A stretch of 62,766 nt of DNA, filler included, from Bonamia ostreae (GCA_040357525.1; 24 parts of 24 records of this genome joined end to end with filler, not necessarily neighbours in it), one strand, 5' to 3'. Numbered from the whole stretch's first letter, positions 625 through 62,766 are shown. Notes: generated from the letters alone by a model not told the origin. A program made the numbers and translations.

Positions 625-2447
625 ATGGATAAGACATCAATGGCGTCGCTTCGAACAAGATTGCCCAATTTTAGAACTGAGGCGAATCCAAGACACATCA
701 GAGGCGGATACAAAACACTTTTGCGAAATTTGAATATCTGCGCTGTTTTGGCTCTGATTTGCTGTATTTTGCCGGCACTGTTCCATCCTGCGGCAATGGC
801 TGCTTACCTCTTTTCGTTGGCCAAGCGATGTTGTTCATACTACAGAACAATTCACTTGTTGCTGTTCACCGTTTTTGCGTTGGCCGCTGTTATGAGACGC
901 GGAAAACGAACATATCTGTTAGACTTCTCTGTTTACAACGGAGAGGACTACATGAAATTGACGAAGAAGCGATTTGACTGGATAATCACACACAACAGTT
1001 GTTCAGAAGAAAGTGCTGAGTTTGCGAAGAGAGTTTATTCAAAATCGCGCATTGGCGACGGAACAATGTTTCCGCCGCAGATAATGGAAAACTTCCCCGC
1101 ACAAATTGACAAGCAAAGCATGGCAGATGCAAAATTTGAGTCGCGAGAAGTAATGTTCAAGTGTGTTAGCGATGTGCTAGAGAAGGCAAAGTTACAGCCG
1201 GTCCAAATTGGTTTCAAAAATTGTAAACGACGAAAGATATTTTGGTTGTGAACTGCTCTTTGTACTGTCCGACTCCTTCGTTGTCCGCGATGGTTTTAAC
1301 GTTCACGAAAAGATTGTGAATCGATTCAAAATGAGAGAAAACATCAAATCCTTCAATCTGGGCGGAATGGGGTGCAGCGCGGGATTGATATCCGTTGATT
1401 TGGCCAGCGATCTGCTCAAAAGCAGCAATTTCAAATACGCTTTAGTCGTGTCCACCGAAAACATAACTATGAACTGGTACAAAGGCAGCAACAAGGTTTC
1501 AAAGAAAACTTTTGACCAGTCGATGCTCATTCCAAACACTCTTTTCCGTGTTGGGGGAGCAGCTTTAATCTTGACCAACGCAAACTGCCGTAATTGCAAA
1601 ATGGAACTTTTGCATCTCGTCAGAACGCATAAAGGAAGAGACGACGCTTGCTTTGACTGCATCTCGCAGGAAGAAGACGACAAAGGGATAATTGGAGTGC
1701 GTCTGAACAAAAACATCTTGAAAGTCGCCGGAAAAGCCCTAAAGACCAACATAACCGTCCTCGCGCCACTGACTTTGCCATGGTTGGAGCAGGCAAAGTA
1801 CATTTTGAACGCATTTGCAAGAGCTTTGTTAGAGCGGAAGGTGTTGAAGAACGCGAATGCGCAGGTTCGAAGAGTTTTTTATTCTTTGGTTGATTTCCTG
1901 CTCGCTAATAAATCGAAGAGGAGCTTTGTTGGTCTCAGTGGATTGGGGCGGAAATTGTGCATGTTGTCAGACGAGGTACTTTTTAAATCGACTCAAAAGG
2001 ACGTTGAAGATAAGACTTACATACCAGACTTTACGAAAGCGTTTGACCATTTTTGTGTTTATAAATTTTATGAGACAGATACACGCGGGTGGGAAGGGGG
2101 TTATAGAAGCCATAGAAGTGAATTTAAAGCTTCCGTTTGATAAAACTAGAGTGTCTTGGAAGGTTTTGGAGAGGTTTATAAAATTTTAAGTTGAGCAAAC
2201 TACAAATTTTAAAAATTTGCAATTTTGCTGAATTTGCGTTAGTTATGGCAACACATCCTCTTCGTCGATTTGGTACCAAATGGATTGCCATTTGAAGGAA
2301 TCTAATGTGAAGACTGGAGACAAAATTTGGCAAATTGGCTTCGGAAGTGGGTTTAAATGGTTTTCAAGAAAAATTTCAATTTTGTAATAATCGAATGACC
2401 AAATTTAAATAAAAAGTAACAGCGCTGTTTGGAAAATGCTTAAATAA
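625..2447 (+). CDS. KCS: FAE1/plant-type 3-ketoacyl-CoA synthase (very-long-chain fatty acid condensing enzyme)
   Basis: After removing introns 1211-1236, 1293-1312, 1496-1519, 2057-2078 and two later ones: N-terminal TM helices, [63 protein letters not shown]. Confidence 0.93.
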
Positions 2448-2539
2448 ATGTTTTTGGTGTGACAATGTTAAATTTTGTCTTTTAAGACAATAAAAGTTTT
2501 GTCTTTTGTTCGACGCTTTTTTCGAAGATATGTCGTCTT

Positions 2540-2639
2540 NNNNNNNNNNNNNNNNNNNNNNNNNNNNNNNNNNNNNNNNNNNNTTAATTAATTAANNNNN
2601 NNNNNNNNNNNNNNNNNNNNNNNNNNNNNNNNNNNNNNN
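2540..2639. other. Artificial contig linker (N44-TTAATTAATTAA-N44), first of 23 identical linkers
   Basis: Same 100-nt block with stops in all six frames recurs every ~2.6 kb; flanking contigs decrease in length. Confidence 0.98.
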
Positions 2640-2861
2640 TAATTTTCGAGTCGTGTTAGATTGATTTGAGCACATAAAAGTCTATTTTTCAAATACGAAA
2701 GAAAGGACTTTATTATTTTACCGACACATTTTTAGTTGATTTTTTTTTCTTTTCTGACAAGGCGATAAAAATTTAAAATAGCAGACAAGTATCAGCCGCC
2801 AGTGATCAGTATTTTTGAGAATCGCACGCACAAAATCTGCAAAAATTTTAACTTTTTTATA

Positions 2862-3530
2862 TCAACCATACAACGTTAAATTTCTCGCTTTTATTGAATT
2901 TTGTAATCGATCTTTGGACTCGCTTTCGCACCCATTAAATCTACAAATATCTTTTTTTATGTTATGCTTTATCGATTCTAAATCTTGATATTGCGAACTT
3001 AACATGCTATCGTCATTGTCTTCAAACGCAAATATTTCTTGGCTAACACAAGCATAAATAGGTAAGTCTTCATCATCGTTTTGCTGATAAAAATATTCAT
3101 TTGTTTGTGGATAAAAGTCTTCATTCATTGACGGATAAACAAATGCATCTTCGTTCATCGATTGGTAAAAAGTTGAGTTTTCGTCCATAATCTGATCGAT
3201 AGAAGAGTCTGTATCGATAGATAAATCAAAAAATTCGCTTTTATCTGTCGACTTTAAAAAAGATTCGTACTCTTCTCTTGTTTGATCGTAATACGTTCTG
3301 TTTGGCGCAAGCAATTCCAGTGAAAAGTACCTTTCTGTATCGAAGCTTTTTGGTATCTCTGCTCGTCTATTATCAAAATTCTCCTCATATTCAGTTAATG
3401 TTTTCGAATAAGGGTGGTCTAAGCAAGTTATGAATTCAGTTCTTTTGTTATCTGACTCAAATATCTCATCTGGATCGCAACCAATATTTTGATCCAAACG
3501 CAATGGATAATATTCAAAACTAGACGACAT
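2862..3530 (-). CDS. Hypothetical acidic protein with short internal SMNED repeats
   Basis: 222-aa ATG ORF in AT-rich DNA, head-to-head with the aldo-keto reductase; 3' end may be spliced. Confidence 0.6.
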   Translation of the reverse strand: MSSSFEYYPLRLDQNIGCDPDEIFESDNKRTEFITCLDHPYSKTLTEYEENFDNRRAEIPKSFDTERYFSLELLAPNRTYYDQTREEYESFLKSTDKSEFFDLSIDTDSSIDQIMDENSTFYQSMNEDAFVYPSMNEDFYPQTNEYFYQQNDDEDLPIYACVSQEIFAFEDNDDSMLSSQYQDLESIKHNIKKDICRFNGCESESKDRLQNSIKARNLTLYG

Positions 3531-3639: not shown

Positions 3640-4864
3640 ATGCGTTATAAAATTTTAGGGCGCACTGGACTAAAAGTTTCAGAGCTATCTTTTGGATGTT
3701 CTGGTTTTGGCGATGTTTATGGAAATGTTTCGCTTGAAACGAGCAATGATTTGGTTTTCAAGCGATTTTTTATTGCTCAAATATGCAATTTAATTTAACA
3801 ATTTTTAAAATTTAACAATTTTGCTTTTTTAAACGCGATTTTTAAAATCTGTTCACACACGATTTTTAAAAGATTGCAAAAGCAGTAGAGAACGGGATAA
3901 ATTATTTTGATACTTCACCTTATTATGGAGCGGGTCGGTCAGAAGAAGTTTTGGGCACCATTTTCCCAAAATTTGAAAGAGAGAAATTAATAATTTCTAG
4001 TAAATGCGGAAGAAGCGGAAAATTGAAGAATGATAACACAATCGAATCCATTTTTAATTTTAGCGCTGAAAGTTTAACAGACAGTATTTACAATAGTCTC
4101 AATGTACTTAACTTGGATTATCTTGACATTGCATTCGTTAAAATTTTTTGCTAATTTTTAATTTTGCAAACTAAATTATTGCAAAAAATCGTTAAATTTT
4201 GATATTTCGTTAAATATTCGTTAAAAAATCGTTAAATTATTGCAAAAAAAAGCTTCACGACATTGAATTTGAAAAATCAAAATCAAAAATTTGCGAAGAG
4301 AGCATTCCAGCTCTGCAAAAACTGAAAGAAAAAGGACTCATTCGCAATATTGGAATTTCTGGGTTCCCCATTGAAATTCTAAATGACTATTTAGTCAATC
4401 CGTCATTAGAAATCGACGTTGTTTTGACATACGGCCATTACTCTCTTCAATCTAATTTGCTCAATAATTACATAAACGAATGGAAGTTTTTTCTGATTTT
4501 CGCAATTTTGCAACAATTGCAATTTTAAAGAGATCGAAATGTGGGAATAATTTGTGCGAGCCCCTTTTCCATGGGACTTTTGACAAACAAAAAACCACCA
4601 AAATGGCATCCTGCTTCAGAAAAATTAAAAAAAGTTAGCGAAGAAGCTCACAGATTTTGCGTTAGAAATGACCAAAATATTTCAAAAACAGCGTTGACTA
4701 AATGCTTAAAAAATGAAAATATTGACACTGTGTTGACTGGTATGTACACAATGAAAGAGTTAGAGGATGCGATAGATGTTGTTGGCAATCCAATTTGCCC
4801 CAAATTTGTCGAAAAAGTGGAAAGTGTGTTCAAAAGAGCCGGAGTTTACAATAAAATGTGGTAG
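3640..4864 (+). CDS. Aldo-keto reductase, L-galactose/D-arabinose dehydrogenase-like
   Basis: Spliced: MRYKILGRTGLKVSELSFG, GINYFDTSPYYG, LDYLDIAF|LHDIEF, GLIRNIGISGFP, ASPFSMGLLT, PPKWHPAS. Confidence 0.85.
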
Positions 4865-8320: not shown

Positions 8321-10013
8321 TTAATATCTAAGAAACAGTTTCATATCAACGAATTTTCTGTGATACAAATCAAGATCAGCCAATTTAATATCGTAAAGAT
8401 ACGCTTTGTTAATCAAATCATTGACTTCCGATGCTTCGACATTTATTTTTTTCAAAAATTGTATTGCATGGTCAAAATGCAAAGTTAAAAGTCTATTTTG
8501 GTTCTTGGCTAACAAAGCTAAAGAAATGGCGTGCAAAAAAGGCCAGCCATCGATCAAAAACAAATCCCAAATACGTTCTGAAAAGTAATCTGGGAAATTA
8601 TAAGTAAAAAGCGTCAAGTACCATTCTGACGCAAACATTCCTATCTTTATGTTTATTCGCCGCTTTTTTGTTATAAAAAATTCAAAAAAAATTTGTTTGC
8701 AAAAATTTCACAAATTCAAAGAAGACAAGCTTAACAATTTGCAATAAATTATTTATCAATGGATTCAATTCGTAAACTACAAATCTTCGAAAACGAAGCG
8801 TCGCCCATTAAAACACAAATTTAAAAGATTTAAATTTCCTCGTTTTCGAAGATGTGTCGTTTTCAAATCGCGTCCATTGATAAATAATTTATTGCAATCT
8901 GACCTGTAATGGCCAAAATACAAAAACAAAGCGTTTCCACGCTCAAAAAGGATGAAATGGAAAGTGGAGAGATCAAATTTTTATTGACTAAAAATCCCCC
9001 AAAAATAAAACAAATTTTCTGTACAACTGCGGCAAATATTTCTTTATAAAGCATTCGAGCTGATAAAGGCTTAATTTGAGCCTCGGCAAATGCTTGAAAT
9101 AATTGGAACGCAAATCGTACTCGAACATCAGCGTCTTCAACAGCAAAAACGAGTCCTATAATTGTTTTGTTTTGAACCTCATCGTCCAAGATTCGGATAA
9201 TCTGTCCGACCAGAAAATTCATTCCTTGGACATAGCCGACTCTGTCGTCCATTTCACAGTATTTAAGGAGGACCCTCTTCAGACTTTGCTCTCTGAAACT
9301 TAAATTTTAGAACCTTCTTTTGTTGCTCTCTTCATTGAAATCGACTCGTAAAGTTCTCTGTAAATATTTAATATAACCGAAATGTCTTTTTCTATTTCAC
9401 GGCGTCTCGTCTCTTGTTCCTGGTTTGTTTCTTCCCGAAGTTGTTTGTTCTCAGAAAATTGTGTCTTTTTTTGACAAAAAAACTTCGAATGTTCCCCTTT
9501 CTTTAAAGTTGGATATGATCAGCCAATAATTTTTTCTGTGCTCCTTCTTGAACCCGCGCATCGCGCACTTGCGGAGAAAGTCTCTACAAATTTGGCAAAG
9601 TTACTTGCTTTTGAGAAAATGGTCTAAAAAGCTTTTCCACGATTTGCTCACTTCTTTAATTCTGCAAAGATCTGATATGTCGCAGTATCCAAAAATGCTC
9701 TGGAAAACTTCTTTTGGCAGGAAATTTTCAAGTCTGCCCAATGAACTTAAATTGGATTTGGAAACGTTTTTCCAGTGTAGTCCTCGATGGAAAGGCCTTC
9801 GTTTATTATAAACGAATTCAATTGACAACACATCAAAATGGCGTTAAAATTTTTGGTTTTGCTCATTGCCGATTCTTTTTTGATTTGCTCCTGTTCTCTC
9901 CTCTTTTTCCGCTCTGCTTCGTCTTCGCCGTTGTTGATCGAGCGCGATAAGCGATAGGCGGCATAACTGACAACGACTCCTGCAATTCCAAGCGTGTATA
10001 TAAAGTTTCTCAT
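8321..10013 (-). CDS. TBC-domain Rab GTPase-activating protein with N-terminal TM segment and F-box-like motif
   Basis: Spliced model: IEKDIS|RT (Arg finger), VGYVQGMNF (Gln finger), FASEWYLTLF, RIWDLFLIDGW; upstream LPKEVFQSIFGYCDISDLCRIKEVSKSWK. Confidence 0.8.
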
Positions 10014-10563: not shown

Positions 10564-10958
10564 ATGCTTGGCACAGGACTATCTACGAATACAGACAAAA
10601 ACAACAAACCGTTGATTCTTGGCGGAAAGAAGCAAGAGTGGAAGTATGGACTTTGTTCGTGCTGCGCTGACCCTCTTGCAAGTTTTCTGTTTTATAAAAA
10701 GCTCTTTCTGCTTGCTTTTTCCCTTGTTTCATCCAAGGAAAAACTTATGCGCTTGCGTCTCAAAACGATACAGCGACGGTTTATATTGTTGTGTTCCTTC
10801 TAGTCGATCTTCTTGGTTTAGGGCTTTGTGGGAACTTGTATCTCAGAATCAAAGTTAGAGAAGAAAATGAGATCAGAGGAAGCGGTTGTGACGATTTCTG
10901 CGTGTCCCTTTGCTGTGGGCCTTGCGCGCTAGTTCAAACTTACAGAGAATTGTTATAA
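10564..10958 (+). CDS. PLAC8 / cysteine-rich family protein
   Basis: WKYGLCSCCAD, CFFPCFIQG, LRIKVREENEIRGSGCDDFCVSLCCGPCALVQTYREL after removing introns (e.g. 10682-10701). Confidence 0.85.
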
Positions 10959-12497: not shown

Positions 12498-13081
12498 ATG
12501 GTCAAAACTTTAACGCTCAAAAACATCAACAAAAATATCATAAAATTTACTTATCAAGTGCGTGGACCTATTGTCAACAAAGCGTACCAAATTTTAGAGG
12601 AGCTCAAAACTCCCAACCACAACTACCCTTTTAAGAAGATTTATATGTGCAACATTGGCAATCCACAGGAATTGGGGCAGATGCCGATAACCTTCATGCG
12701 GCAGATGGTCGCAGCGTGCGTTTACCCCGAACTGATAAAGAACAAGTCTGTGCCTTCTGACGGTTGCCATTCCTCATAAATAGTCATCGCGCGCTCGAAG
12801 CGCTTGCTAGGAAGCAGGATGTCCATAGGAGCGTACACGCATTCGCAGGGATTGCCATCTGTCAGAAACAGCGTCGCCAATTATCTCACGAACAGAGACA
12901 ATTTCAAGTCCAACCCGGAGAACATCTTTCTCTCCAATGGCGCCACTCAGGTAATAAAAATGGCTCTTCAACTGCTCATCTCGTCTGAAAACGACGGGAT
13001 AATGGTGCCGATTCCGCAATATCCTCTATATTCGGCGAGCATTCAAATGTTCGGCGGAAACTTTATCGGGTTTGTTGTGAA
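12498..13081 (+). CDS. GPT: Alanine aminotransferase, 3'-truncated
   Basis: YQVRGPI, CNIGNPQELGQ, GAYTHSQG, IFLSNGA, MVPIPQYPLYSA; 21-nt intron 12763-12783. Confidence 0.93.
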
Positions 13082-15812: not shown

Positions 15813-16828
15813 ATCTTTTTTACTAGTTTACATTGTTTTTTATAATCTCTGGCAATTTTTATTGTTTTAATGTATTGCATTTGTTTTTTCAATTTATTTC
15901 TTTTTTTAATTTGAATATCTATGTTTCTATTCCACCAAACATTACCGATATATTTTTGATTAAATGACATGTTTATTTTTTTACAGTTTTTATCTAATGC
16001 TTTTTTATAAATGTTCCTAAAATGATTATAAATTTCATTTATGTTTTCTTTTTTACATGTGTTTAGAAATTCAACTAAATTTAATTCAAGTTCTTTATTA
16101 AAATTTTCTATGTTTAGACTTTTCCAATTGTACATTTGCTTTTTTTTAGTTTTGGACTTTGTTTCAATGCTAATGTCAAATTTAACAGGCAAATGATCAC
16201 TACCAACATTAATTAATGTACAAATATTATCAATTTTGTTCTCAAAATTCTTTTTTGTTATAACTAAATCCACATTAGATTTTTCTTTGAAATTATTTAT
16301 TAATGTATATTGGATTTTACCATGTATTTGTAACTTTTTTTCTACTATCAAATTATGTAATTTAATACCGTTCAAGTTATTTATATTATTCGACCAAATT
16401 TTATTTTTTGAATTAAAATCACCGCAAATGACACTTTTATTATCAAATTTTATGTCATCATATAATTCTTTAAAATTTATATTTTTAGACGGGATAACGT
16501 ATATATTAAATAATCTTAAACAATTATTTTTATTATCATAAATTTTTATTCCTTGGATTTCATATCCACAGTTATCATCTAATTTTAGATGTTTTAGATT
16601 TATTACATCAAATTTTATTCTATTTTTTATATAGATTACAAGACCACCACCTTTTTTATTATGTGATCTACATAATTCTATACAGTTGAACAACTTTATA
16701 TTAATTATTTTTTTTGTCCATACTTCTTGGACACATATTATATCAGGTTGATTGTTTTTTATCAAATTTTTTATTTCGTTTATATTTTTATTTAATGACC
16801 TTGCATTTAATGAAATAATTCTTAACAT
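15813..16828 (-). CDS. Retrotransposon ORF2, apurinic-like endonuclease domain (truncated)
   Basis: ISLNARSL, DIICVQEVW, GGGLVIYIK, ICGDFNS, VDLVIT, SDHLPV, followed by linker with WWN motif typical of LINE ORF2. Confidence 0.92.
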
Positions 16829-18273
16829 TTTGTCATATTATTACTATCATTCATTTTCTTATTTATTGCTAGTAAAATTTTATCAAAATAATTTTGAAGT
16901 TTTACTTCTACAATATTCATTATTTTATTAATTAATTGTTCTTCATTTATAATATTCGAGTTTATTTTGTTACTGATATTTTTGTTTTCGTTATTATAAT
17001 TATTTATAATTTTTTCTTTATTTTTGTTATTTATAATTTTATTCTCTTTTGCGATTGGAATATTAATACTTTTAGATTTAACTTTGTTTTCTTCTGTGGT
17101 TTTTTCGTTTTTACTTTTCTTTTTATATAATCTTTTAGCTTTTTTTAATACATCTTCATCAAATGTAAACAATTTATCATTATTTTTATCTTCTAATAAC
17201 ATCCACCGATTTTTTGAAATTATTTTTAATTGTTTATCTTTACATTGAAATGAATTTGATTTATGATTTTTTGAACAAAAACGACATACTACACTTGCAT
17301 TGATACAAATCTCTGCAGTGTGTCCATATTTTTGACACCTAAAACATTGTGTTATGTTTTTATTTATATATCTAGATACTTTGAAATCTCTGCGCGCAAC
17401 AGTAAATTTTTTATTATTAATAAGGTGTTCATACATATGTTGATCTTTTAAATTAACAAAGCCAGTACTAAACATTTCATTATTTTTTAATGGTTTGAAT
17501 ACAATGTTTGTAAATCTTATATTCTCACTTTCAAAATACCTTTTTAAGTCATCAACTGTTATATACTTTGGTATATGGTGAATTACTATTTTATATAAGC
17601 TATGGGTATTATCAATTATTTCAGCCGACTCACCAAATTTTTTAGGGTTTACATTAAATTGAGCCTTTTTTTTGTCTTCATAACTTTTAAAAAATACTCT
17701 TATGTCGCCATATGGCAACAAGTCGCATTCAATAGCTTCTTTAAAATTTTCGGCAACAATCATTTTCAATTTAAAATTGTTCAAGTATATTTTTTTATTT
17801 TCAATATTTTTGATTAATAACGAATGAAAATTTTTATTATCAAATTGTGAATGCAACTCATCACTTTTATAGAACTTTCGTTTTTTATTTAACGTATGAA
17901 AATTTTTATTAGATATTGAAACATGGTCTTCAGTAGTTATTTGAGCTGGTATTAACTCAGCAAACGTTTTAGACTTTATTTGTGGCTCTACTCTATATCC
18001 ATTTTCTATGAGCCATTTCGAGTATTTTTCAAAGCGTTTTTGGCTCATATTAATTTTTTCTTCAGTTATTGGCAGTGTATTATTATTTTCGGTCGTAGAG
18101 CTGTCAAAAAACAGTTTTTTGTTCGAAACTGAAATTCCCGTTTTTTTAGACTTTTTTGATATAATATTTTTTTTCAGCGGTTTTTCAGTTGTGCTTTTCA
18201 GCCTAGAATCGGACAGAGGGGGGGTGTCCTTTGTGTTCTTATTGCTTTCCGAAGTGTTTCCACTTGTGTTCAT
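16822..18273 (-). CDS. Retrotransposon ORF1, gag-like nucleic-acid-binding protein
   Basis: 483 aa; RRM-like KIVIHHIPKYITVDDLKRYF; zinc knuckle CFRCQKYGHTAEIC (CX2CX4HX4C) followed by CRFCSKNH. Confidence 0.9.
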   Translation of the reverse strand: MNTSGNTSESNKNTKDTPPLSDSRLKSTTEKPLKKNIISKKSKKTGISVSNKKLFFDSSTTENNNTLPITEEKINMSQKRFEKYSKWLIENGYRVEPQIKSKTFAELIPAQITTEDHVSISNKNFHTLNKKRKFYKSDELHSQFDNKNFHSLLIKNIENKKIYLNNFKLKMIVAENFKEAIECDLLPYGDIRVFFKSYEDKKKAQFNVNPKKFGESAEIIDNTHSLYKIVIHHIPKYITVDDLKRYFESENIRFTNIVFKPLKNNEMFSTGFVNLKDQHMYEHLINNKKFTVARRDFKVSRYINKNITQCFRCQKYGHTAEICINASVVCRFCSKNHKSNSFQCKDKQLKIISKNRWMLLEDKNNDKLFTFDEDVLKKAKRLYKKKSKNEKTTEENKVKSKSINIPIAKENKIINNKNKEKIINNYNNENKNISNKINSNIINEEQLINKIMNIVEVKLQNYFDKILLAINKKMNDSNNMTKC

Positions 18274-18292
18274 TTGCGTTTTTTTATTATAT

Positions 18293-18340
18293 TTAGGGTT
18301 AGGGTTAGGGTTTTTTTTTAGGGTTAGGGTTAGGGTTAGG
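18293..18340 (+). repeat. Telomeric repeat tract (TTAGGG)n, one unit with T9 instead of T2
   Basis: (TTAGGG)3-TTTTTTTTTAGGG-(TTAGGG)2-TTAGG running to the contig end. Confidence 0.9.
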
Positions 18341-18440: not shown

Positions 18441-20968
18441 TTACTTATTCGAATATCTGAAATTGCTTTTGGTGAATGGTAACATCCCATCAAAAGTACT
18501 TTGCAGTTTTTGTGGGACAATATTTTTTGTTTTGTTTTTTCATCGTCGCATTCAACGCTAACGATGGAACAACCCAATCTTATCCCAAACCGGATAAAAC
18601 TCGCGTAGAGATTTTTGTTGTCTGGGAAATATCCTCCCTTTGACTTTGGTAACAATGTGAATATCACTGGTAACTCAGTCGCATTCCAAATATTGTAAAG
18701 TTGTTTAGCGATAAAAATGTCGGAAAAGTTTTTGAGCATATCTACTCTCATTTCTACCGCGTTGTGACCGGTTGTCATTTTTGCAACTTGGTCTAAATTC
18801 TTAATTTTTGTTTTGAATTTTTACCGATTTTTGTTTTGAAATATTTTGTAATTAAAACGGAATATTCTGGAAGGGTAAGACATGCCATGAAAGATTGCCT
18901 TGACAAATATTCTTTAAGGTTAATTTTGGGTTGGAAAATTTTTTTGCAAAATAGAGCAAAATTTTTCTTATCTTTAGCCAAATCTTCAGTTACATAAAAT
19001 TCATATTTGGAAAGTTTTTTATATAACACTTTTCTGTTAAAATAGACATCTCTTTTCAAAATTTAAAGCAAAATTTAGAAAATTTTTAAAAAACAGCATT
19101 TTTCAATTTTATATCATTTGGAAAAAGTTAAATTTTTTTAAAAACAAAAAATCGCAATTCGGCAAACTGATTCTTTTGTTCTTTTCTTTTTGAAAAAGCG
19201 TTTCCTTTATTTTTTCAATATCTCTCACGACAAAAACGACGCAGCAATTTTTTACCATTTTTGAAAAAAGGGCAGTTTCAACAATACCTCCTCCACAAGA
19301 AATAATGGTGTTCCCCTTTTTTTCTAAAATGGCTGAGAAAGTTTCAATTTCCATTTTTCGAAATTTGGCCCAGCCGTTTTTGCGAATAAATTTATTTAAT
19401 GACAAATTAAGCACTTTTTCCATTTGTGCGTCAATATCAAAAAAGTTTGAATTTAGTTTTTCTGCTGCGTATTTTGACAATGTTGTTTTTCCGGCAGCTC
19501 TAAATATATTTTTGTTGTTATCGAAAAAACACTTTGATCAAAATATTGTTACCAAAAAGCACTTTGATCAAAATATTGTTATCGAAAAAATACTTTAATC
19601 AAAATATTGTTATCAAAAAAGCACTTTAATCAAAATATTGTTATCAAAAAAGCACTTTAATCAAAATATTGTTATCAAAAAATCACTTTGATCAAAATAT
19701 TGTTACCAAAAAAACACTTTGATCAAAATATTGTTATCGAAAAAACACTTTGATCAAAATATTGTCATCAAAAAAATACTTTAATCAAAATATTGTTATC
19801 GAAAAAGTACTTTAATCAAAATATTGTTATCGAAAAAATACTTTAATTAAAATATTGATATCTAAAAATTACTTTAATCAAAACAAAACCTCATTCCAAT
19901 TACAATAATTTTGTTACAATATTCAAAATTAAATTCTGATTTTTTATTAATCGCCATTTTCGCAGCTCTGAAATTATGTTTTAAATCAAAAGTTTTTTCT
20001 ATTTGTCTGAAAAATGACGGAAAAGTTTTTTCGACGCAATATTTATCAGAAATGATAACGTTCTCGGTTATTAAACCAAGCAAAGAAAAACTCATCGCTA
20101 AACGGTGATCGTTTTTGCAATCTATTACAGTCCCTTTCAATCTTTTTAATTTAAAAGTCGGTTTTCAATTAAACATATTTTTCGTATTCAAATTTTTCGT
20201 ATTCAATTTAAACAAATTGCAATTAAACAAATTTATTCAATTAAAAAAATGTTCACAAAATTAACGGTTTACCGCCTTTTATAATAAGTCCAGTCTTAGT
20301 TTCTAAAGCTTTGACGCCCATTTTATTTAAATTTGTTACAACTGATTCGATTCTATTGCTTTCTTTCAATCTTTGGTTCTTCAAATTAAATTGTTACAAA
20401 AATAATCGTCCCAATAAATAACTTGAATATTGAAAATCTCAGTTGTTCCGTTAGTGACAGCGGCAACCATCGACATCGCCATAAAAGAGTCGGTGCAATT
20501 TGACATATCAATTTTTTCGAGCGATTTTAGGATTTCTTGATTTCCACGTTTTTCTAGAACCAAATTTTCTTCGTCTCTGTAAACTTTGATCCCCATTTTT
20601 TGTAACAAAGATACGAAAATTGCTTCTCCTTGTAATTTTGTGTTCGGGTACTTCATAACAACGATTTTCTGATTTGTTATCGCGGCTGCAGCTAAAAAGT
20701 ACTTTTTGTTTAAAAATGTTACTGCTGCTGACGAAGCGTCTGGTTCGATGTGTATATCAGACGGGTTTCGGTAGCAACCCTTTTCTACAACAAACTTTTA
20801 ATTTTTTAGGAATAAACGATGGATTTCTTTATTTGTTTAACTTTTGCTCCGAATTGATGCATTAATTCTATCGTCATTGTTACATAGCTCTCAGAAGTTA
20901 TTTTTGTTGCCGTTTTTTCTTTATCTCCTTCCTATTTTAATTCATCGGTAACAATTATAAAAGTTTTT
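18441..20968 (-). CDS. ARO1: Pentafunctional AROM polypeptide, internal part (EPSP synthase, shikimate kinase, type I dehydroquinase)
   Basis: IEPDASSA, LQGEAIF, DMSNCTDSF, NQRLKESNRI, NDHRLAMSFS, CVEKTFPSFF; IGMR|AAGKTT P-loop, ISCGGGIVE; AVEMRVDML, PVIFTL. Confidence 0.92.
19515..19885. repeat. Intronic minisatellite, ~30-31-nt unit, about 11-12 copies
   Basis: AAAAA(G/C/T)ACTTT(G/A)ATCAAAATATTGTTATC tandem units inside AROM intron 19500-19889. Confidence 0.9.
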
Positions 20969-31561: not shown

Positions 31562-34079
31562 TCTTGTTTCGAACAGACTTCCGATTATTTTAAAGGTAAA
31601 TATAATAATAGTATATAATGTTTAGAAAGACCCTGTATCAAAAATGTGGAATAAAAAGATATCAAGCGGTGGCTTAGTAAGTGCAATGTCTTGTCTAAAA
31701 TCGAAAATGAAGTGGGTAGGGTATGTTGGAATGGATATACCGAAAGATGAACGACCAAAAGTTAAAGAATTACTTTTTGAGATAAATTGCATTCCCGTGT
31801 TTATTAAAAAGGGTTCTTTAATAAAAATTTTAGAGCTATATGATTTGTATTATAATGGCTTTTCCAATGATGTATTATGGCCTGTTCTGCATTACACTCA
31901 CATATTAGTGAATACATTGATCAAAGAAGAAGAATATTGGAATGCTTATGTGGCTGTAAATAAACTTTTTTTTAAGGCAATCCAAGAAAATTTAACAGAC
32001 ATAGGATCTGTCTGGATTCACGGTACAAATAATAATTATTAGATTATCATTTAATGAAGCTGCCTAACATTTTAAGAGACAACAAGCCCAATTTGAAAAT
32101 TGGTTGGTTTCTACATACTCCATTTCCGAATAGTGATATATTCAGAATATTGCCCAGAAGAAGAGAATTGCTCAAAGGCGTTTTATCAAGTGATTTAATA
32201 GGATTTCACATTTATAACTACGTCCAACATTTTAAAGTTTATTTTATAATTATAGAATACTTGTTCAGAAATTTTAGGTTGTGACGCTGGAGCAGATGTT
32301 TTCTATATAAATTTAAGTCCATTGATTATAACGGAAAATTAACTATGGTCGAGGCTTTTCCAATTGGCATAGACAATACTAAATTCAAAAAATGTCTTCA
32401 ATGCAAAGAATTTAAAGATAAAAAAAGTGAATTAAGAAATAGATATGGAAAAGCAAAAATAATTGTGGGCGTAGATAGATTAGATTATATTAAAGGAATA
32501 ATGCACAAACTTATTGCGTTGGAAAATTTTTTTGATAAAAACAAAGAGTGGATAAACAAAGTGACATATGTTCAAATTGCAGTTCCTACTCGAACAGAAG
32601 TGCCTGAATATCAGTCTTTAAGCGAAAGAGTTCATGAACTGGTAGGAAGAATCAATGGAAAATTTAGCAATTTAATTCATGTACCAATACGTTTTATAAA
32701 TTATTGAAAAGATTACCTTGATACTTCAATACCACTCGAAACATTGATGGCATTATACAGTATTGCAGATGTATGTCTAATAACATCCCTTAGAGATGGG
32801 ATGAATTTAGTTGCATATGAATATATAGCATCCCAAGTTGAAAATGTTGGAGTATTAATTTTAAGTGAATTTGTTGGTTAATTTATATAATTTAAGGGGC
32901 CGCTCAAAGTTTAGGAGCAGGAAGTATACAAATAAATCCATGGAATATTGGGGAAGTATCCATAGCAATAGGCAAAGCTCTTAAAATGGAGAATGAGAAA
33001 AAAATAGAACTTTTTAATTATGTCAAAAATTATGTAGTCAAGCATTCTGCTCAAGTTTTTAAATCAAAATATAGCGTTGGGCAGAAGATTTCATATGTAT
33101 GTTAAAAAAAAGTTGGGAAATAACAAATTCGTTTTTTAAAGAATATTGTTTACCACAAAAGCTTAATTTGAATGAAATAGAAAATGCATTTGTAAATTCA
33201 AGTAAAAAAATTATTTTTCTTAGCTTAGTTGGCACTCTTCTAGATTATGTTTTTTAAATTTATAAATAAGAATTTAAAGGAAAAGATAGAAAATACTAGA
33301 CTTTCAAACGAAATGCAAAAAAGTTTAGAGAGATTATCTCGGTCAAAAAATACTGAAGTTTTTTTTTAATTTTAGATTGTAATTATATCATCTAGATCGA
33401 AACATCACATGGAAAATATTTTTACTAATATACCTGCATTGTTATTGGCTGAGAACGGCTATTATTTAAAGGACAACAAAAGAACAAAAAATTGGACAGT
33501 ATATTTTTTCATATTTATAGAAAACACAAGAAATGCATCTAACTTGGATGGATTCCGCTGAAAAAATGGTGTATTATTTTGTAAAAAGAACTCCTGGAAG
33601 TTTTATTGAAAGATTAGAAACTTCTATATACTGGTATTATGCAGGATGCGTAGGAGCGTTTTCTGAAAAACAAGCAAGAGATTTAATTAGAAATTTACAA
33701 ATGGGCCCTTTAATTAATACGCCAACAGAAGTTATACACGACCAATTGAATAAATTTGTGAAAGTTATTAAATTATATTAAATAGGTTCAATTGATTGCC
33801 TTAAACAAATCATACGCAGTCAAAATTTCACTGAGTTATTTTCATGTTCTTAGTAAGTATGAAAAAGATGAGAAATTATCTGAACAGAAATTCGAATTTA
33901 AAAGTAGTAGTTGGATTGAACATGTATTTAGAAATAATGGGCAAAAAATTATTTATGCATATGAAGAAATAAAAAAATATAATTTTATTCTGTTTGTAGG
34001 AAATAATTTTGAGTTAGAAAAAGATGATTATTATTTATTTAACAAAAAATCTACTTCCAAAAAAAATCCTTTATTGAGA
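31562..34079 (+). CDS. TPS1: Trehalose-6-phosphate synthase with C-terminal phosphatase-like domain (partial)
   Basis: VSNRLP, SSGGLVSA, YYNGFSNDVLWP, WIH|DYHL, FLHTPFP, GVDRLDYIKG, RDGMNLVAYEY, LSEF; many ~20-nt introns. Confidence 0.95.
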
Positions 34080-42065: not shown

Positions 42066-44480
42066 CATTCGATCGCTAAATCCTCTCCTCTGAACTTTCT
42101 GCATGAAGACTTTCGTCACGCCCCTGACCCCGCGCAAGGCCATCCTGGCGAGCAAGTTCGTGCTCACCTTGCGCAGAAACGCGTCGTCCTGCGATCCCAA
42201 CCGCTGCAACATCTCTTCCTGCTCCTCGCTTCCCCGTCCGACCACGCGCACGCGCAAAACCGGCGTCTCCGCGTTGTCGCTATTGAAGACGCAGTTCAGA
42301 TCGCCTTCGAACTCCGCGTTGATGCGGTCGGCGATCTCCTGGTTCGATATCCCCTTCGTCTGTTTCTTCTTTTTGTCCAACGTCACGCGGAGCACCCAGT
42401 CGCTCAGCTCCTCCGGGTCCGCTGCCTCGTCGTCCCCGAACACCGGCAAATCGCTGTACGCTTGCAGGAACTCCGCGTCCTCTTCGACGATCGTGGGCGC
42501 GCCGACCGGGTCGTAGTAGACCTCCGCGCTAGCCGTGATGTCTCTGAGCGTGGCGTGCTCCAGTTTGTTCAACAGTTCGGTCGCTCTGGCCGCGTCATGC
42601 GACAGCTCCGGCCGCAGGTGCACGGTCATCCCCGGCGTGCGGATTTGCTTCGATACGTTGATCAGTTCGCGCAGCCGCGGGACACCGAGCGTGACGTTCT
42701 TCGCGGACACGCCGGCGTAGTGGAAGGTGTTCAGAGTCATCTGAGTCGCCGGCTCGCCGATCGACTGCGCCGCGAGAGTGCCGATCATCTCGCCGGGCTC
42801 CGCGAGACTGGCTCTGAAGCGGCCCAGGATCTCGTCGGCCAGCCAGGAAAACGCCTGCGTGGTCAATCTGCGGCGCGCCACGAGCAGCTTGGAGCCGAGG
42901 GAGGAGCGCAGCTGCATGCGGAAAAGGATGGTGGCGTTCTCGCGGGCTTCGGCTCGGAGGCGGCCGGGGCCGCGTACAGCGACGCATTGCTCGCAGAGCT
43001 GCTGCACGCGGCGGATGACTTCTCGCGGGTCGAGATCGCTGCGCGTGCGGGGCGAAATCGAGAAGATTTTCTGAGAGTTTGAAACGAGTCTTTCGACGTT
43101 GACCGGAAGGTACACGCTTCGCGAGTAATCATTCTTTTTATTGTTAAATTGGCAATTTTAATGCAATTTTTATAATTTTGATTTTTTTTAAATTTTACTG
43201 AAACGTTTTTAATATTTTTTTGACGTTTTATAACATTTTTTTCGATTTTTAACAAACGTTTTTATTATTTTTTGACGTTTTATATCATTTTTTTCGATTT
43301 TTAACAAACGTTTTTATTGTTTTTTGACGTTTTTATGACATTTTTTTAAATTTTAACAAACGTTTTTAATATTTTTTTGACGTTTTATATCATTTTTTCA
43401 ATTTTTAACAAACGTTTTTAATATTTTTTTTGACGTTTTATATCATTTTTTCGATTTTTAACAAACGTTTTTAATATTTTTTTTGACGTTTTATATCATT
43501 TTTTACATTAAAACACGATATCGAACTTTTAACATTTTATTCGCTGAGCTATAAAATCTGAATGAACATTTTAGTCGTAATATCAAATAAATTTTTGTAA
43601 ATATAAAGTTTAGCAATTGTGGTTACCAGAAAAGCAATGTTTTCGCGATAAAACAATCTGTCTTTCCGGAGTTGCGCTGCTTCGAATTCCAATAATTCGT
43701 CGTCTTCTGCGTTTTGGCTAATCGCTTCGAAGACTTCGCTTTGCACCGCGGCGCGCAGATCGCTCTTGTTCCAAACATACGTTTTCTCGAATTCTGTCTT
43801 GTTCATCCAGACACTTTCTATCACTTGTTGTTCCACATGTGCCCCATCAATGCCGTCTTCCCCATAAAGATACTTTCCATTTAAATTTTTTTAGATTTTC
43901 AAAATGGAATTTTAAAAATTTGCAATCCGAAAATTTGTAAACTTTTTAAACTAAAATTGCTATAAAACCTGTAAAATGTCGCCCAACGAATTTCTAACAG
44001 TTCCGTCATATTGAATCATCAAGTGCTCCATTGCCTTCACAAGTCTTCTTTGAATGTATCCGGTTTCGGCGGTTTTTACCGCTGTGTCCACCAACCCTTC
44101 TCTTCCCCCCATCGCATGGAAAAACATTTCTTGTGGGGTCAGTCCCTTTGAAAAATTTGATTTAAAATGGCCACTTTTCAAATTTAGTTTTTAGTTGTTC
44201 TACGAAATGACCTCTAGATAAGAATTTGCGACGAACCCTCGGCTTTCGGGGCCAAGATCGTCTTTTTTGAAATGTGGCAGCGTCCGATCTTTGAATCCGT
44301 ACGGAATCCGCTTTCCTTGAACGTTCTGCTGGCCAACGCAAGCGATGATCTGGCAGATATTGATAATGTTCCCTTTTGAACCCGCGTCTACCATTTGTTT
44401 GATATTGTTTTCCCGCAGCAAAGATTGCTGCACTGCTTTCCCGGCGTTTTCTGTCGCGGAATTTAATGCGTTGTTTACCT
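42066..44480 (-). CDS. RPB1: RNA polymerase II largest subunit, internal part
   Basis: [88 protein letters not shown]. Confidence 0.97.
43200..43505. repeat. Intronic minisatellite, ~52-nt unit, about 6 copies
   Basis: TTTTAACAAACGTTTTTAATATTTTTTTGACGTTTTATATCATTTTTTCGA repeated within RPB1 intron 43134-43626. Confidence 0.88.
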
Positions 44481-44721: not shown

Positions 44722-46036
44722 TTATTTATTGCTGCAACACCTTATTAATTCGTAATTTTTGTTGGACTCTGCTACAATTTTTTCATTTTGCTCTATTAAC
44801 AGAATATCTCCTTTATTCACAATAATTCGTTCATTGTTTTTGTCTATTGATTAATATCATTTTATAATCTTTTTGACAATCTGTAAATCAAACCATTTTT
44901 TAAGGCCAAGTCCTTTCCTTCCGAAACAAACAAAATTGATTCGTTTTCATGACAATTCAAACAATTTTCTCCCTTTTCAGAACCCATTTTCTCGACAAAA
45001 AATTCTTTTTCTTTATCATTAATAAAACCAATTCCCACATTTTCAGGTGAATTGTAGACTGTTGTAAAATCGTTTTGAATTTCAGGTTTTATCAGAAGCA
45101 CCTCCGTTCCAGACGAAAACTCGGCACAATCGACAAATCGATCCAAATCTTTGCGTTTCGGCGTCAACCCGCATCGGATCACGTTGTCTGAACAGGCCAT
45201 TGCTTCATAGCAGTCGCCTTGTACATAAGCGTGAGGAGTGCCATTTGGAATAAAAATGGCTTCTCCGGGATCCAAAGAGATTTTGTTTAGAAAGAAAGGG
45301 GCCAAAACGCCGATGTCGTTTGGATATTGTCTGTTCAGCAAAATTACCAGATCAGAAAAGTTTTGCTTCAAATTCGAACTGGACAGAATTTTCGCTAAAA
45401 TTTGCGGAAATTTTGGCGAGTCAAAACTGAAAACTTTTGCAAAGATTTGCTTCGTTGTCATTTCTTCTCTAATTTTCGAATCTCGCAAAAATAAATTTTA
45501 AAAAATTTTGTTGACGAAAAACATAAAATATCATCTCAAATTTTGTAAACAGAAGAAAACCTGTCAAATTTAAAATATCGACCAAAATTTCTGGGAACTT
45601 TGCCAAATCGTCTACAATATCTTCAAATGGTCTGAAACCGCAAAGAAGAACAAATTTCGTGATGGCTATGCACATTTCCGGTTTGTGATTGTCGTCTTTG
45701 TAAGTCTCCGGCTCTTCTTTATTGTACAAAACTGCTTTTTCCTTTGACGGGTGCACTTGAACAGACAAAGCCGTTTTCACAGATAAAATTTTGAACAGAA
45801 AGGGCAAATCGCGGCCGAGATAAAATTTCAGAGACAATTTCTCGTTCTTTCGATCGCAAAATTTAAAAATTGCAAACTTTTAAGATCGACATTCCGTTTT
45901 GGTGAGTTCCGAACCACCATTCCGCGTAATTTAAATTTGGATCTTCAGTTTTCTCTTTGCAAAATTGAGCAATAATGCTTTCGTTCCCGACTTTGCCCCA
46001 TTTGTAATTTTTAATTTCGCAATCCAAAAATTTCAT
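44722..46036 (-). CDS. MPI: Mannose-6-phosphate isomerase (type I)
   Basis: NYKWGKVG, YAEWWFGTH, LPFLFKILSV, LSVQVHP, YKDDNHKPEM, PHAYVQGD, EAMACSDNVIRCGLTPK. Confidence 0.95.
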
Positions 46037-53169: not shown

Positions 53170-53173
53170 ACTT

Positions 53174-56229: not shown

Positions 56230-56292
56230 TCGGCTAATTTTGTCTATTTCTGGTATTCGAACATAGTCATTTCAAATATAAGTTTTCGCAAA

Positions 56293-60000: not shown

Positions 60001-60164
60001 CAGATTTTTTTATTAATTTTGATCAAATTTATCGATTTTTATTAATTTTTACTGATTTTTTAATTAATTTTGATCAATTTTTTTTATTGATTTATCATTA
60101 TTTTTAATCGATTTTTTTATTAATTTTGATCAAATTTATCGATTTTTATTAATTTTTACTGATT
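59988..60164. repeat. Degenerate intronic tandem repeat
   Basis: GATTTTTTATTAATTTTGATCAAATTTATC-type units to the contig end. Confidence 0.7.
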
Positions 60165-60395
60165 NNNNNNNNNNNNNNNNNNNNNNNNNNNNNNNNNNNN
60201 NNNNNNNNTTAATTAATTAANNNNNNNNNNNNNNNNNNNNNNNNNNNNNNNNNNNNNNNNNNNNTTGGCATTGTTTTTGTAATTAAAAGTGAGTATTATA
60301 AAGGTTTGAGGCAAACTTCAGATTCAAAAACATTAAATCTTTGATTTAGTCAATAATTTAGACATACAACATAACATTTTAACAAATTAGCCAAA

Positions 60396-61180
60396 ATGGC
60401 TCATATCAAATCCAATATTAGACCAATTCAAAAAGAATTTGAATATACGACAAAGCTTTTTGAAAACACCGAAAAAGCGAACGAGCTTTCAAAAAGTTTA
60501 ATTAAATTTGATTAAAAGAGATTTTGACGAATTTGTACAAAGAAAATCTGGAGCTCAACCAAGAACTCATTCTGAAAAATAGAGGTTTGTTAACGCAGAG
60601 CCATTTTTGATTTACCAAATTTGCTGCTAAAATCTAAATTGCTAAAATTCGATAGAAGCGAAGAACGAAAAAATGCACGTCTATAAATTATCATCTGAAC
60701 TAGAATCAATGCAAAAAGTGTGCGAAGAACTTCCATCTGTGATCAAAGCTCTTTCAGCCGAAAATATGGCATCGAAAGAAAACTTGAATTCGCAAATTCG
60801 CCAATTGGAAATGACGAAAAGTCTTAACGACCAAAAAATAAAAAATCTGCGAAACAAAATTAATTTGAGAGAAAAATTGCTCGGTGTTCGATTTGAACCG
60901 ATTCAATGTTATTTTTTGAAAAACGGAAATTTTAAAGACGGCGTCAAAATAGTTTTGTTCAATCTGTTGGAAAACAATCCGAACTACGAATGCAATTTTA
61001 GATTGAAAATAGAGAACGGCTATAAAATTACCGATTGCAATCCGAAGATCGATTTTGCGGACGAGCTTAAAAAGTTTTGCCAAACGGAGGATTTCAAGTT
61101 ATTTATGAAAGTTTTTACTTAAAATTAAGTCGATGAGAAATCAGTTTATCAGAAAACTGGAAAAGGAATTGTTTTATTAA
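60396..61180 (+). CDS. SPC25: Kinetochore protein Spc25-like
   Basis: Coiled coil followed by LLGVRFE...GVKIVLFNL...FRLKIENGYKITDCNPKI RWD-type domain. Confidence 0.7.
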
Positions 61181-61411
61181 ATTTATGTGTCTTCAATTTT
61201 TTGGTCGTCAAAAATTTAATTTCGCCATTTCCGTTTCGTCTTTTTGGGGATTTTTATGTTTTTCAAAAATTGAATAAAACATTTTTACAATGCAAACTGA
61301 ATAAAGAGTTTAAGATTTGTTCCAAACTAGTAAATAAATAGGACATTAGTTTTCGGATGAAAACTCCATATACAAATAAAGATTAATAAATTCTCATATA
61401 TCAAAAATTTA

Positions 61412-62766
61412 ATGGCGGACAATGAACTTAAAAATTTGATCGAAAATTTTTTAAGTCAAACTAATGAAAAATCTGTTTTCGCCATTACAGAAATGCCCCT
61501 TTCACTACAAAATATTTACGTCTTTCTAAGACGATCTAAAACTTTTGACTCAAATTTAAACTTTAGTCAAAATTTTATTTTGAGGTTTATTCAAAAATTT
61601 TTAATCTAATATAAAAAATAAAGATTGCGAAGATTCCTTTGCGAAAACAACACTTTCGCAAAAGCTAAAATTATTCATATTTTGCGTTATTTAACTCATT
61701 TTCCATCTTTTAATTACTCGGAATTTTCTCATTGCTTTAACATTCTAATTTCCTGGTTAAACAAAATTTTATTCAAATTAACAAAATTTAAAAAAAAAAC
61801 GAAAATTTTTTTGAAAAATTTAACCAAAAATTTCCCTAAAATTGAATTGCAAAATTTTGAAAATTTTTTTGAAAATTATTAAAAGGTCGTTGATTCAACC
61901 CGAATCCTATCTCAAAGAACGAACAAGTGCTTTTAAGTTCGTTTACAGAATTGTAAAAACAGAATATTCGGCAATTGACATTTCTGTTATCCAATCTTTA
62001 ATTTCCGTCGCTTCCGAGCCCAGCGATTCGTTATGCCGCTCTTCGTTAGATTTGTTAACCGATTTGGCCATTTTGCTACCGGAAGAAGTTTCGATCTGTG
62101 GAGGATATAAAATAATTTTAAATTCGCTTTGCAATCTCACTTTTAGAGTTTTGAAAAATTTTGACATTTTTAATATTTTTGTAAATTTTCAGAAATTTTT
62201 CTCAAAATTTAAATTTGCAAAATTTGATCTTTTTGTTGCGAAAACGACAAAATTGCAAAAATCTATTTTTCAGAATTTAGCAATTTGTTTTCAAAGGATC
62301 AATTCCAGAAAATAACGATGGTCGTTATGGGTTTGATTGAATGTCCAAGAACTCAAAAACTTTTTAATCCGCACGATTTCCACACATTTTTATACAAATG
62401 CAACAACAATAACGAAGAATATGTTAGTTCCATCGGCGTAATCCAAGTTTGGATAATTTCAAAATTTTAGTTTTTAAAAACGGCTTTGTTCAATATTGAC
62501 ACAGCGATATTTCTTCTATCAGATGATGAATTTGTAAAAGGATTGATTGAGACCATTCGTCCTATTAACACAAATTCTGCCACATATTTTTCTGTCTTTA
62601 TTAAAATTTTTAAGATATTTTGTAAAATGAAAAATTTGAACTTTGAAAATTGCAATTTTTTGTAAAATGAAAAATTTGAACTTTGAAAATTGCAATTTTT
62701 TGTAAAATGACAAAATTTGAACTTTGAAAATTGCAATTTTTTGTAAAATGACAAAATTTGAACTTT
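61412..62766 (+). CDS. RICTOR: Rictor (TORC2 subunit) N-terminal part
   Basis: HILRYL, ERTSAFKFV, SLISVASEPSDSLCRSSLDLLTDLAILLPEEVSICGG match the Rictor N-terminal pattern. Confidence 0.65.
62617..62766. repeat. Intronic minisatellite, 40-41-nt unit, at least 3.5 copies
   Basis: TGTAAAATGA(C)AAAATTTGAACTTTGAAAATTGCAATTTTT repeats. Confidence 0.88.

Follow-up and report, generated by a model that had tools for sequence, protein, structure and literature searches.

The window analysed here (62,766 nt) consists of 24 separate contigs of about 2.5 kb joined by synthetic spacers and is not one locus, so that the micro-introns described by the earlier note as pervasive over 625-62766 lie on many separate contigs. 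Tiny spliceosomal introns interrupting genes on these contigs are confirmed. On 10 of the 24, one protein is broken into at least two ORF pieces. The interrupted genes encode, among others, a FAE1-type KCS, TPS/TPP, AROM, aldo/keto reductase, myosin and RPB1. A LINE-like ORF is present and the setting is that of a nuclear genome; no tRNA and no Rfam family were found in the window. The closest named RPB1 cluster contains the rhizarian Plasmodiophora brassicae (51% identity), a weak hint of rhizarian affinity; an atlas search gave generic RPB1 clusters only, PDB myosins were of no diagnostic value, and a metagenome scan returned no close relative, its best match being 50% identical. KCS and AROM genes are not known from animals.

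Interrupted genes and their introns

Introns were called by spliced alignment to homologues with only GT..AG ends permitted, and homology borders were set without using donor positions +3 to +6. The following were obtained on the first contig.

239-263, - strand: intron, 25 nt, GTTTGC..TCAAG; missing from a depth-135 contig of sequencing run X1
1211-1236, + strand: KCS (FAE1-type) intron, 26 nt, GTTTCA..GAAAG; 8/8 queries, flanks matching P0245 at 12/20 residues
1293-1312, + strand: KCS intron, 20 nt, GTTTTA..AAAAG; 8/8 queries, flanks 16/20
1496-1519, + strand: KCS intron, 24 nt (3n, stop-free), GTTTCA..CCAG; exactly these 8 residues absent in 9/9 homologues
2057-2078, + strand: KCS intron, 22 nt, GTTTAT..ACAG; 7/8 queries, flanks 12/20
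2174-2242, + strand: KCS intron, 69 nt, GTTTAT..TTAG; joint in X1 contig 5, 7/8 queries
2360-2416, + strand: KCS intron, 57 nt, GTTTTC..AAAG; joint in X1 contig 5, 6/8 queries

The intron at 1496-1519 does not figure in the list of the earlier note. A further skip at 1841-1999 (159 nt, 3n, stop-free), proposed by 2/8 KCS queries, was taken as an insertion. The other genes yielded the following.

31596-33785, + strand: TPS/TPP gene, 11 introns, each 18-31 nt; five homologue queries
32023-32042, 32237-32255, 32298-32317 and 32691-32711, + strand: TPS introns, each 5/5 queries
32877-32896, 33055-33074, 33358-33375 and 33499-33520, + strand: TPS introns, each 5/5 queries
33249-33279, + strand: TPS intron, 4/5 queries, the fifth using the same donor
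31596-31625, + strand: TPS intron, 3/5 queries, other alignments stopping short of the site
33764-33785, + strand: TPS intron, 1/5 queries, other alignments stopping short of the site
4137-4252, + strand: aldo/keto reductase intron, 116 nt, GTTAAA..AAAAG; 3/4 E. coli AKR queries, sole one-intron solution
4486-4530, + strand: aldo/keto reductase intron, 45 nt, GTTTTT..TAAAG; sole solution, 1/4 queries
9746-9765, - strand: F-box gene, claimed 20-nt intron, GTTTCC..TTAAG; one of two ORF-compatible solutions, donor common to both
10682-10701, + strand: PLAC8 gene, claimed 20-nt intron, GTTTTC..AAAAG; one of 2-3 ORF-compatible solutions, acceptor common to all
12763-12783, + strand: aminotransferase gene, claimed 21-nt intron, GTTGCC..AATAG; one of three ORF-compatible solutions
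20795-20817, - strand: AROM (EPSP synthase part) intron, 23 nt, GTTTAT..AAAAG; fungal AROM P0121 and E. coli AroA concordant
20379-20422, - strand: AROM intron, 44 nt, GTTATT..TGAAG; P0121 and E. coli AroA concordant, flanks 14/20
24743-24761, - strand: myosin head intron, 19 nt, GTTTTT..CGAAG; sole solution, Pfam-supported pieces 37 nt apart
24918-24939, - strand: myosin, probable 22-nt intron, GTTTTG..TAAAG; one of four solutions with tight anchors, medium confidence
43873-43968, - strand: RPB1 fragment intron, 96 nt, GTTTTA..GAAAG; 8/8 queries, flanks 15/20
44146-44211, - strand: RPB1 fragment intron, 66 nt, GTCATT..CAAAG; 8/8 queries, flanks 16/20
45467-45560, - strand: phosphomannose isomerase, probable 94-nt intron, GTTTTC..AGAG; E. 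coli ManA 1/1, medium confidence

Across the aldo/keto reductase intron 4137-4252, Pfam positions continue from 107 to 108, and the probable myosin intron 24918-24939 was also picked by a codon-score DP. For PMI, ThiF and the aminotransferase, the junctions obtained with E. coli homologues were weak: the flanks of 45467-45560 match at 3/20 residues, with eight ORF-compatible solutions, and one of two queries favoured a 99-nt skip in the region of 12763-12783. HEM4 and MutL pieces had no E. coli match. Two further RPB1 "introns" (43654-43526 and 43487-43198), although returned by 8/8 queries, were dropped because of an intervening mini-exon without homology.

The well-supported set comprises 25 introns, with homology-based borders for 11 in TPS, 5 plus one 3n intron in KCS, 2 each in RPB1, AROM and AKR and 1 in myosin; 17 of the 25 come from two genes. 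Eighteen measure 18-31 nt and seven 44-116 nt, a spread not confined to a narrow 2-4-nt class like that of Stentor, mikrocytids and the nucleomorph; "micro-introns" thus describes most of them but not all. Every one begins with GT and ends with AG. When all 256 terminal dinucleotide pairs were compared, GT..AG ranked first for both TPS (score 1796, against 1673 for the runner-up and an average of 1229 for the rest) and KCS (979, 945 and 804, respectively), and collinear full-length alignments of the two proteins required no other end pair. At the junctions no query residue is skipped (at all 11 introns for TPS against P0123), the flanks match, and removal restores the conserved ORF; retention would break the reading frame in 24 of the 25. 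Four of the seven introns listed in the earlier note are independently supported, namely 1211-1236, 1293-1312 and 2057-2078 in KCS and 24743-24761, the only GT..AG solution joining two Pfam-supported myosin pieces. The remaining three (9746-9765, 10682-10701 and 12763-12783) are compatible with splicing, each among two or three ORF-compatible GT..AG solutions, but not proven.

Information on removal comes from run X1, for which RNA is no more than a guess at the type. A run search listed no RNA run containing the window's words; X1 contained 0.45 of them and X2 next to none. Its read cover was examined over 1-2539, where it spans five introns; cover is absent at 862-1239 and 1485-1556, which include the introns 1211-1236 and 1496-1519. 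X1 contigs lack 239-263 (25 nt), 2360-2416 (57 nt) and 2174-2242 (69 nt) with exact GT..AG borders, and two of these three coincide with homology-predicted introns. The 20-nt intron 1293-1312 is unspliced in X1 contig 3, which runs gapless over 1240-1484, as is the 22-nt intron 2057-2078 in contig 5, the same contig being spliced at the next two introns. Unspliced forms of these two therefore exist and may dominate there, although one path was kept per bubble, so that the contigs establish the presence of a form and not the absence of the other.

Attempts at a window-wide count did not give a usable intron density. A fewest-introns enumeration merged small exons, the codon-score DP missed TPS entirely and misplaced the KCS introns, and with a least-removal DP 7 of 10 TPS introns were retrieved but none of those in KCS. 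When ORF-bridging candidates were tallied by their end dinucleotides, GT..AG did not stand out, and GTTT began 31 of 155 of them against a background of 0.18 (p 0.28). A donor-PWM scan at a 2-bit threshold returned 60 donors versus 36 in the reversed sequence, an excess too weak for a census.

Splice-site signals

The 25 donors are T-rich over positions +3 to +7 (21, 18, 13, 15 and 13 of 25). T at +3 exceeds both its frequency in intron interiors (0.39; p 6e-6) and that after any GT in the window (0.443; p 5e-5), and T at +4 likewise exceeds the interior value (p 1e-3). GTTT begins 17 of the introns compared with 0.203 of all GT (p 3e-7); GUA occurs in three, G at +5 in one and GTRAG in none. 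The earlier note's description of GTTT or GTT donors in place of GTRAG is thus borne out, and T at +3 and +4 lies above the intronic background. On the exon side, A is found at -2 in 16 and G at -1 in 11 of the 25. The same donor type recurs on contigs of 28% to 51% G+C, the latter value being that of the contig hosting the myosin intron 24743-24761. U12-type (minor) introns carry a conserved (A/G)TATCCTT donor, which begins none of the 25.

The 3' ends are AAG (15), TAG (8) and CAG (2). The acceptors are A-rich, as the earlier note had it, but A at -3 and at -4 (15/25 each) stays within composition (interior A 0.42; p 0.058). Pyrimidines make up 0.48 of positions -15 to -4, the same as intron composition, with no tract apparent, as the earlier note observed. 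With interiors of 82% A+T, both acceptor features reduce to intron composition. No clear branch motif was found across the 25 introns, yet A shows some excess at -8 (16/25; p 0.024, without correction for positions tested; 15/25 at -9), which tempers the original remark that no branch motif is evident.

Two readings that would dispose of these signals are both very improbable. Reducing the GTTT bias to mere A/T-richness accommodates the composition of the interiors and the acceptor features, but the +3 count exceeds both of its backgrounds and the GTTT count its own, and A, the commonest interior base, occupies +3 in only 3 of 25 introns; the donor bias goes beyond base composition. The second reading takes the short inserts for something other than introns, be it errors of assembly, lesions of pseudogenes, segments eliminated from the DNA or stretches bypassed in translation. 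Ciliate internal eliminated sequences have TA at both ends and are removed at the DNA level. The presence of two inserts in X1 contigs would fit such an origin, but the uniform GT and AG ends (unlike TA), their first rank among end pairs, the donor type shared with the three run-supported introns and the collinear proteins obtained on removal argue against it.

Comparison with other tiny-intron systems

Entamoeba introns are not known to be tiny. Entamoeba was the only system with GUUU donors in the literature searched, the terms otherwise occurring in work on fungal stwintrons. Its donor, GUUUGU(U), matched by a U1 with 5'-AACAAAC-3', shares U at +3/+4 and A/U-rich introns with the window, and E. 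invadens favours a branch A near -8, where a branch A may also lie here; by contrast, +5 G and +6 U are near-invariant there (88-90% GUUUGU; here 1/25 and 15/25), and intron densities are low, compared with 11 introns in one 2.5-kb gene here (10.1101/2022.06.08.495308, as available in part). Mikrocytids (Rhizaria) possess very short GT-AG-type introns, an AT-rich genome and incomplete splicing (63%/37%), but the available portion of that source describes 224 introns per genome of fixed 16-17 nt and none in metabolic enzyme genes, whereas introns here are of 18-31 and 44-116 nt and dense in TPS and KCS (PMC10245619). Introns of the Bigelowiella natans nucleomorph (18-21 nt) fall in the same length class, with GU-AG ends beyond which neither a further motif nor a branch adenosine can be made out; they differ in belonging to a 370-kb relic genome with narrow lengths and mostly 90-100% splicing, unlike the nuclear setting and broad lengths here, and the accessible part of the report mentions no GUUU bias (PMC6009652). 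Stentor coeruleus has 15-16-nt A/U-rich introns, a major-type spliceosome and a branch A at fixed distance, yet its donors are strictly GUA (PMC9505925, partial text). Myxobolids and dicyemids, with median introns of 22-27 nt, have a donor reduced to "GTa" (PMC13644364, in the part available); they are animals, whereas the window carries KCS and AROM genes. Among these systems Entamoeba is the nearest precedent for the donor, apart from the +5 G.

Donor recognition and implications

The data show that the introns exist, where their borders lie, that three of them are missing from X1 contigs and that the donor is biased beyond composition. The introns are very probably ordinary-type, lariat-forming GT-AG spliceosomal introns in an AT-rich eukaryote using the standard genetic code. 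Many would have shrunk to 18-31 nt, others being of 44-116 nt, and the 5' splice-site consensus would have shifted from GUAAGU to GUUU(U/A), its U-richness fading by +8 and +5 lacking G. The 3' end would consist of AG alone amid A/U-rich sequence, an A about 8 nt upstream being the likely branch point, and recognition may act over the whole short intron. The premise from which the earlier note inferred altered U1/U6 is correct: given U at +3/+4 and almost no +5 G, a canonical U1 5' arm would pair with little beyond GU, -2 A, -1 G and +6 U. The donor may be read by a U1 with a changed, Entamoeba-like 5' arm or, alternatively, mainly by the U6 ACAGAGA box, whose A residues could pair with U at +2, +4 and +6 and whose G could wobble with U at +3, aided by a U-binding protein. 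The smallest introns may be spliced out inefficiently. An Rfam search for snRNA within the window returned none, at gathering thresholds or at E<=1.

Whether the snRNA changed at all is nearly balanced, leaning slightly against the view that U1 is canonical or absent and no snRNA has changed in compensation, the U-rich donor being bound by a protein of the TIA-1/Nam8 kind or recognised chiefly by U6/U5. The U-richness forms a stretch over +3 to +7 and not two fixed positions; yeast and Giardia retain a standard U1 despite a +4 pyrimidine, but Entamoeba (GUUUGU with U1 ACAAAC) and Mastigamoeba provide examples of co-evolution between U1 and donor (10.1101/2022.06.08.495308, partial text). In mikrocytids, only U2, U4 and U6 were found and U1 was not detected, according to the available part of PMC10245619, and Stentor keeps ACUUACCU in U1 (PMC9505925, likewise in part). 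It is rather unlikely that elements up to about 22 nt are for the most part retained, leaving many transcripts of such genes unproductive or their splicing regulated, and that efficient splicing is confined to introns from about 25 nt upwards. The split in X1 between retained 20- and 22-nt KCS introns and missing 25-, 57- and 69-nt introns points that way, as do the mikrocytid splicing rates of 63% for 16-nt and 37% for 17-nt introns (PMC10245619). X1, however, covers five introns with one path per bubble and may contain pre-mRNA or DNA, and a TPS protein collinear with its homologues requires the removal of nine introns no longer than 22 nt. Spliceosomes remove 15-21-nt introns in Stentor, mikrocytids and the nucleomorph, in the last mostly at 90-100% for 18-21 nt, in the sections available (PMC9505925, PMC10245619, PMC6009652).

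Beyond the reading as ordinary-type introns, it is possible, if doubtful, that a lineage, perhaps rhizarian, rebuilt donor recognition on GUUU(U) without +5 G, through a new U1 5' arm or a dispensable U1, with introns down to 18 nt that stay mostly unspliced below about 22-25 nt. Public protein P0243 (NCBI, UniRef; first contig) is an ORF from an internal Met that ends by running on into the 22-nt intron, and no public protein of at least 246 residues matches the TPS exon above 67% identity. Gene finders unable to model introns below about 30-40 nt would fragment this organism's genes. Because public gene models run through these introns, the gene content and coding density published for such a lineage would be too low; should a new U1 5' arm be involved, snRNA and donor would have co-evolved independently once more, in addition to Entamoeba and Mastigamoeba. 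With U at +3/+4, no +5 G and introns of 18 nt, the system raises the question of how little RNA-RNA pairing suffices for a spliceosome.

Gene content and contig structure of the window

The window is a set of 24 contigs in falling size order (2,539 to 2,502 nt), not one chromosomal stretch, joined by 23 identical synthetic spacers:

2540–2639 and 22 more sites, ~2.6 kb apart: synthetic spacers, each 44 N, a 12-letter six-frame stop linker, and 44 N

Any ORF or "gene" spanning a spacer is an artefact. Two contigs contain an internal 10-N scaffold gap, and RPB1, AROM, myosin, and TPS appear truncated because contig ends cut them. Pfam searches of the ORF pieces retrieved KCS/FAE1, aldo/keto reductase, TBC, F-box, PLAC8, aminotransferase, AROM, myosin, MutL, TPS/TPP, kinase, RPB1, PMI, HEM4, ThiF, ArfGAP/DENN, Spc25, RICTOR, and a LINE-like endonuclease ORF, which shows a set of ordinary eukaryotic nuclear genes; no tRNA or Rfam family was found within the window. 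Long minus-strand ORFs with a LINE-type endonuclease/exonuclease/phosphatase domain (Exo_endo_phos_2) at 15813–18340, on a contig of 23% G+C, look like a non-LTR retroelement.

Of the 24 contigs, 10 carry one protein spread over at least two ORF pieces. Ab initio methods for a window-wide intron census were all unsuccessful, and the description of introns as pervasive in an earlier, sequence-only note therefore rests on these ten contigs and six aligned genes.

Short GT–AG introns with a U-rich donor

Genes in the window carry GT–AG introns with a U-rich donor, many of them near the lower known length limit of the spliceosome. Homologous proteins were aligned to the DNA with a spliced aligner (BLOSUM62, affine gaps) that admitted as introns only GT..AG segments of 12–300 nt and used no further splice information. 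In the TPS/TPP gene (31596..33785, plus strand), five homologues, one of them 67% identical, placed 11 introns of 18–31 nt; eight were recovered by 5/5 queries, and query residues were skipped at none of the junctions. Eight homologues of KCS, an FAE1-type gene, yielded introns of 69 and 57 nt together with introns of 26, 20, and 22 nt that are exactly the first three micro-introns of the earlier note. Further introns were placed in RPB1 (66 and 96 nt, 8/8 queries), AROM (23 and 44 nt, two independent queries concurring), and the aldo/keto reductase (116 and 45 nt). The 19-nt myosin intron in the same note proved to be the sole possible solution, and its remaining three (9746–9765, 10682–10701, and 12763–12783) are ORF-compatible, but each is one of two to three such solutions. 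In a control that reran the TPS and KCS alignments over all 256 end pairs, GT..AG scored highest for both genes (1796, runner-up 1673, and 979, runner-up 945, respectively). GT and AG are far rarer than TT or AA in these genes, yet GT..AG ranks first.

KCS also holds one segment of intron-like form, which would add eight residues with the frame unbroken if retained:

1496–1519: 24-nt segment, GTTTCA..CCAG, with GT..AG ends, a multiple of three in length and stop-free, missing from 9/9 homologues examined

Between two conserved exons of the RPB1 fragment, the minus strand bears a tandem array at 43181–43504 (53-nt unit, 6.1 copies, 88% match). Every unit has a GT..-type start resembling the adjacent intron border, and an intron may therefore have grown here by tandem duplication. 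The exon structure between 43654 and 43090 is ambiguous.

Signal figures were taken from 25 well-supported introns, 17 of which come from two genes. T occupies +3 in 21 of the 25 (A 3, C 1), +4 in 18, and +6 in 15, while +5 is T in 13, A in 9, C in 2, and G in 1. The interiors of the same introns are 0.39 T and 0.42 A; across the window, a fraction of 0.443 of all GT is followed by T and 0.203 by TT. The earlier note had named a T frequency at +3 and +4 no higher than background as evidence against its donor claim; T exceeds intron-interior composition significantly at both positions (p 6e-6 for +3, 1e-3 for +4), and at +3 it also exceeds its share after any GT in the window (p 5e-5). Most donors are GTTT (17/25, p 3e-7), and GTRAG is seen in 0/25. 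On the exon side, −2 is A in 16/25 and −1 is G in 11/25. In six further, less certain introns, +3 is always T (6/6) and +4 is T in 5/6, a tally that is not independent because three of them were chosen in the earlier note.

Acceptor triplets are AAG (15), TAG (8), and CAG (2). Neither A at −3 and −4 (15 of 25 at each position, p 0.058) nor the proportion of pyrimidines ahead of AG (0.48) goes beyond composition. The A-rich acceptor lacking a pyrimidine tract is thus correctly described, but it does not amount to a separate signal. A at −8 is somewhat enriched (16/25, p 0.024, uncorrected).

G+C varies among contigs between 0.23 and 0.51 and is highest in the myosin contig. The same donor type occurs on this contig (51% G+C) and on the TPS contig (28% G+C); such sharing of short GTTT-type introns across the G+C range argues for one organism, the alternative being a mixed source.

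Introns in a sequencing run and in public annotation

Near-identical contigs from run X1, a public sequencing run presumed to be RNA by guess only, lie over two genes of contig 1 and cover five introns. Three GT..AG introns starting GTTT are missing from these contigs, the latter two coinciding with the homology prediction:

239–263, minus strand: 25-nt intron
2174–2242: KCS 69-nt intron
2360–2416: KCS 57-nt intron

The 20-nt KCS intron at 1293–1312 is crossed gaplessly by one X1 contig, and the 22-nt intron at 2057–2078 by the very contig from which the 69- and 57-nt introns are spliced out; unspliced forms of both thus exist in the run. Spliced forms are not callable as absent, because contigs retain one path only. 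Over the KCS exon at 1557–1815, an X1 contig differs at 6/259 letters, and neighboring contigs differ at 0–1; these mismatches may be allele, paralogue, or strain variation.

The public protein P0243 (269 residues; NCBI, UniRef) is the ORF over 1331–2140. Its start is a Met internal to KCS, and it stops 27 residues after entering the 22-nt intron at 2057–2078, which is left unspliced; the public model therefore takes no account of the tiny introns. No public protein of at least 246 residues matches the TPS exon at >67% identity. KCS and TPS show no correctly spliced model in public data.

Splice-site recognition and relatives

A canonical U1 arm would be expected to pair little with these donors beyond GU, in which case recognition would have to rest on something else. 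Options include a changed U1, the U6 ACAGAGA box (for which U at +2, +4, and +6 are possible pairing partners and U at +3 a possible wobble), a protein that binds U, or definition by intron length. Entamoeba exemplifies the changed-U1 route, with GUUUGU donors and U1 ACAAAC, and standard U1 is kept in yeast and Giardia despite a +4 pyrimidine (10.1101/2022.06.08.495308). In mikrocytids, U2, U4, and U6 are the only snRNAs found (PMC10245619).

Comparably small introns are described in Stentor (15–16 nt, strict GUA donors; PMC9505925), mikrocytids (16–17 nt; PMC10245619), the B. natans nucleomorph (18–21 nt; PMC6009652), and Myxobolids and Dicyema (22–27 nt, 'GTa' donors; PMC13644364). In the literature searched, Entamoeba is the only organism reported with GUUU donors. 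Its +5 G, however, is lacking here (1/25), which places these introns outside the Entamoeba type and leaves a resemblance in kind. The genes here combine tiny introns with GUUU donors, without +5 G.

Among the matches found, identity to the RPB1 fragment does not exceed 51%, and no closer relative turned up in the metagenomes scanned. The fragment's nearest named cluster includes Plasmodiophora brassicae, which hints weakly at Rhizaria; a donor type shared among Rhizaria such as mikrocytids is conceivable.
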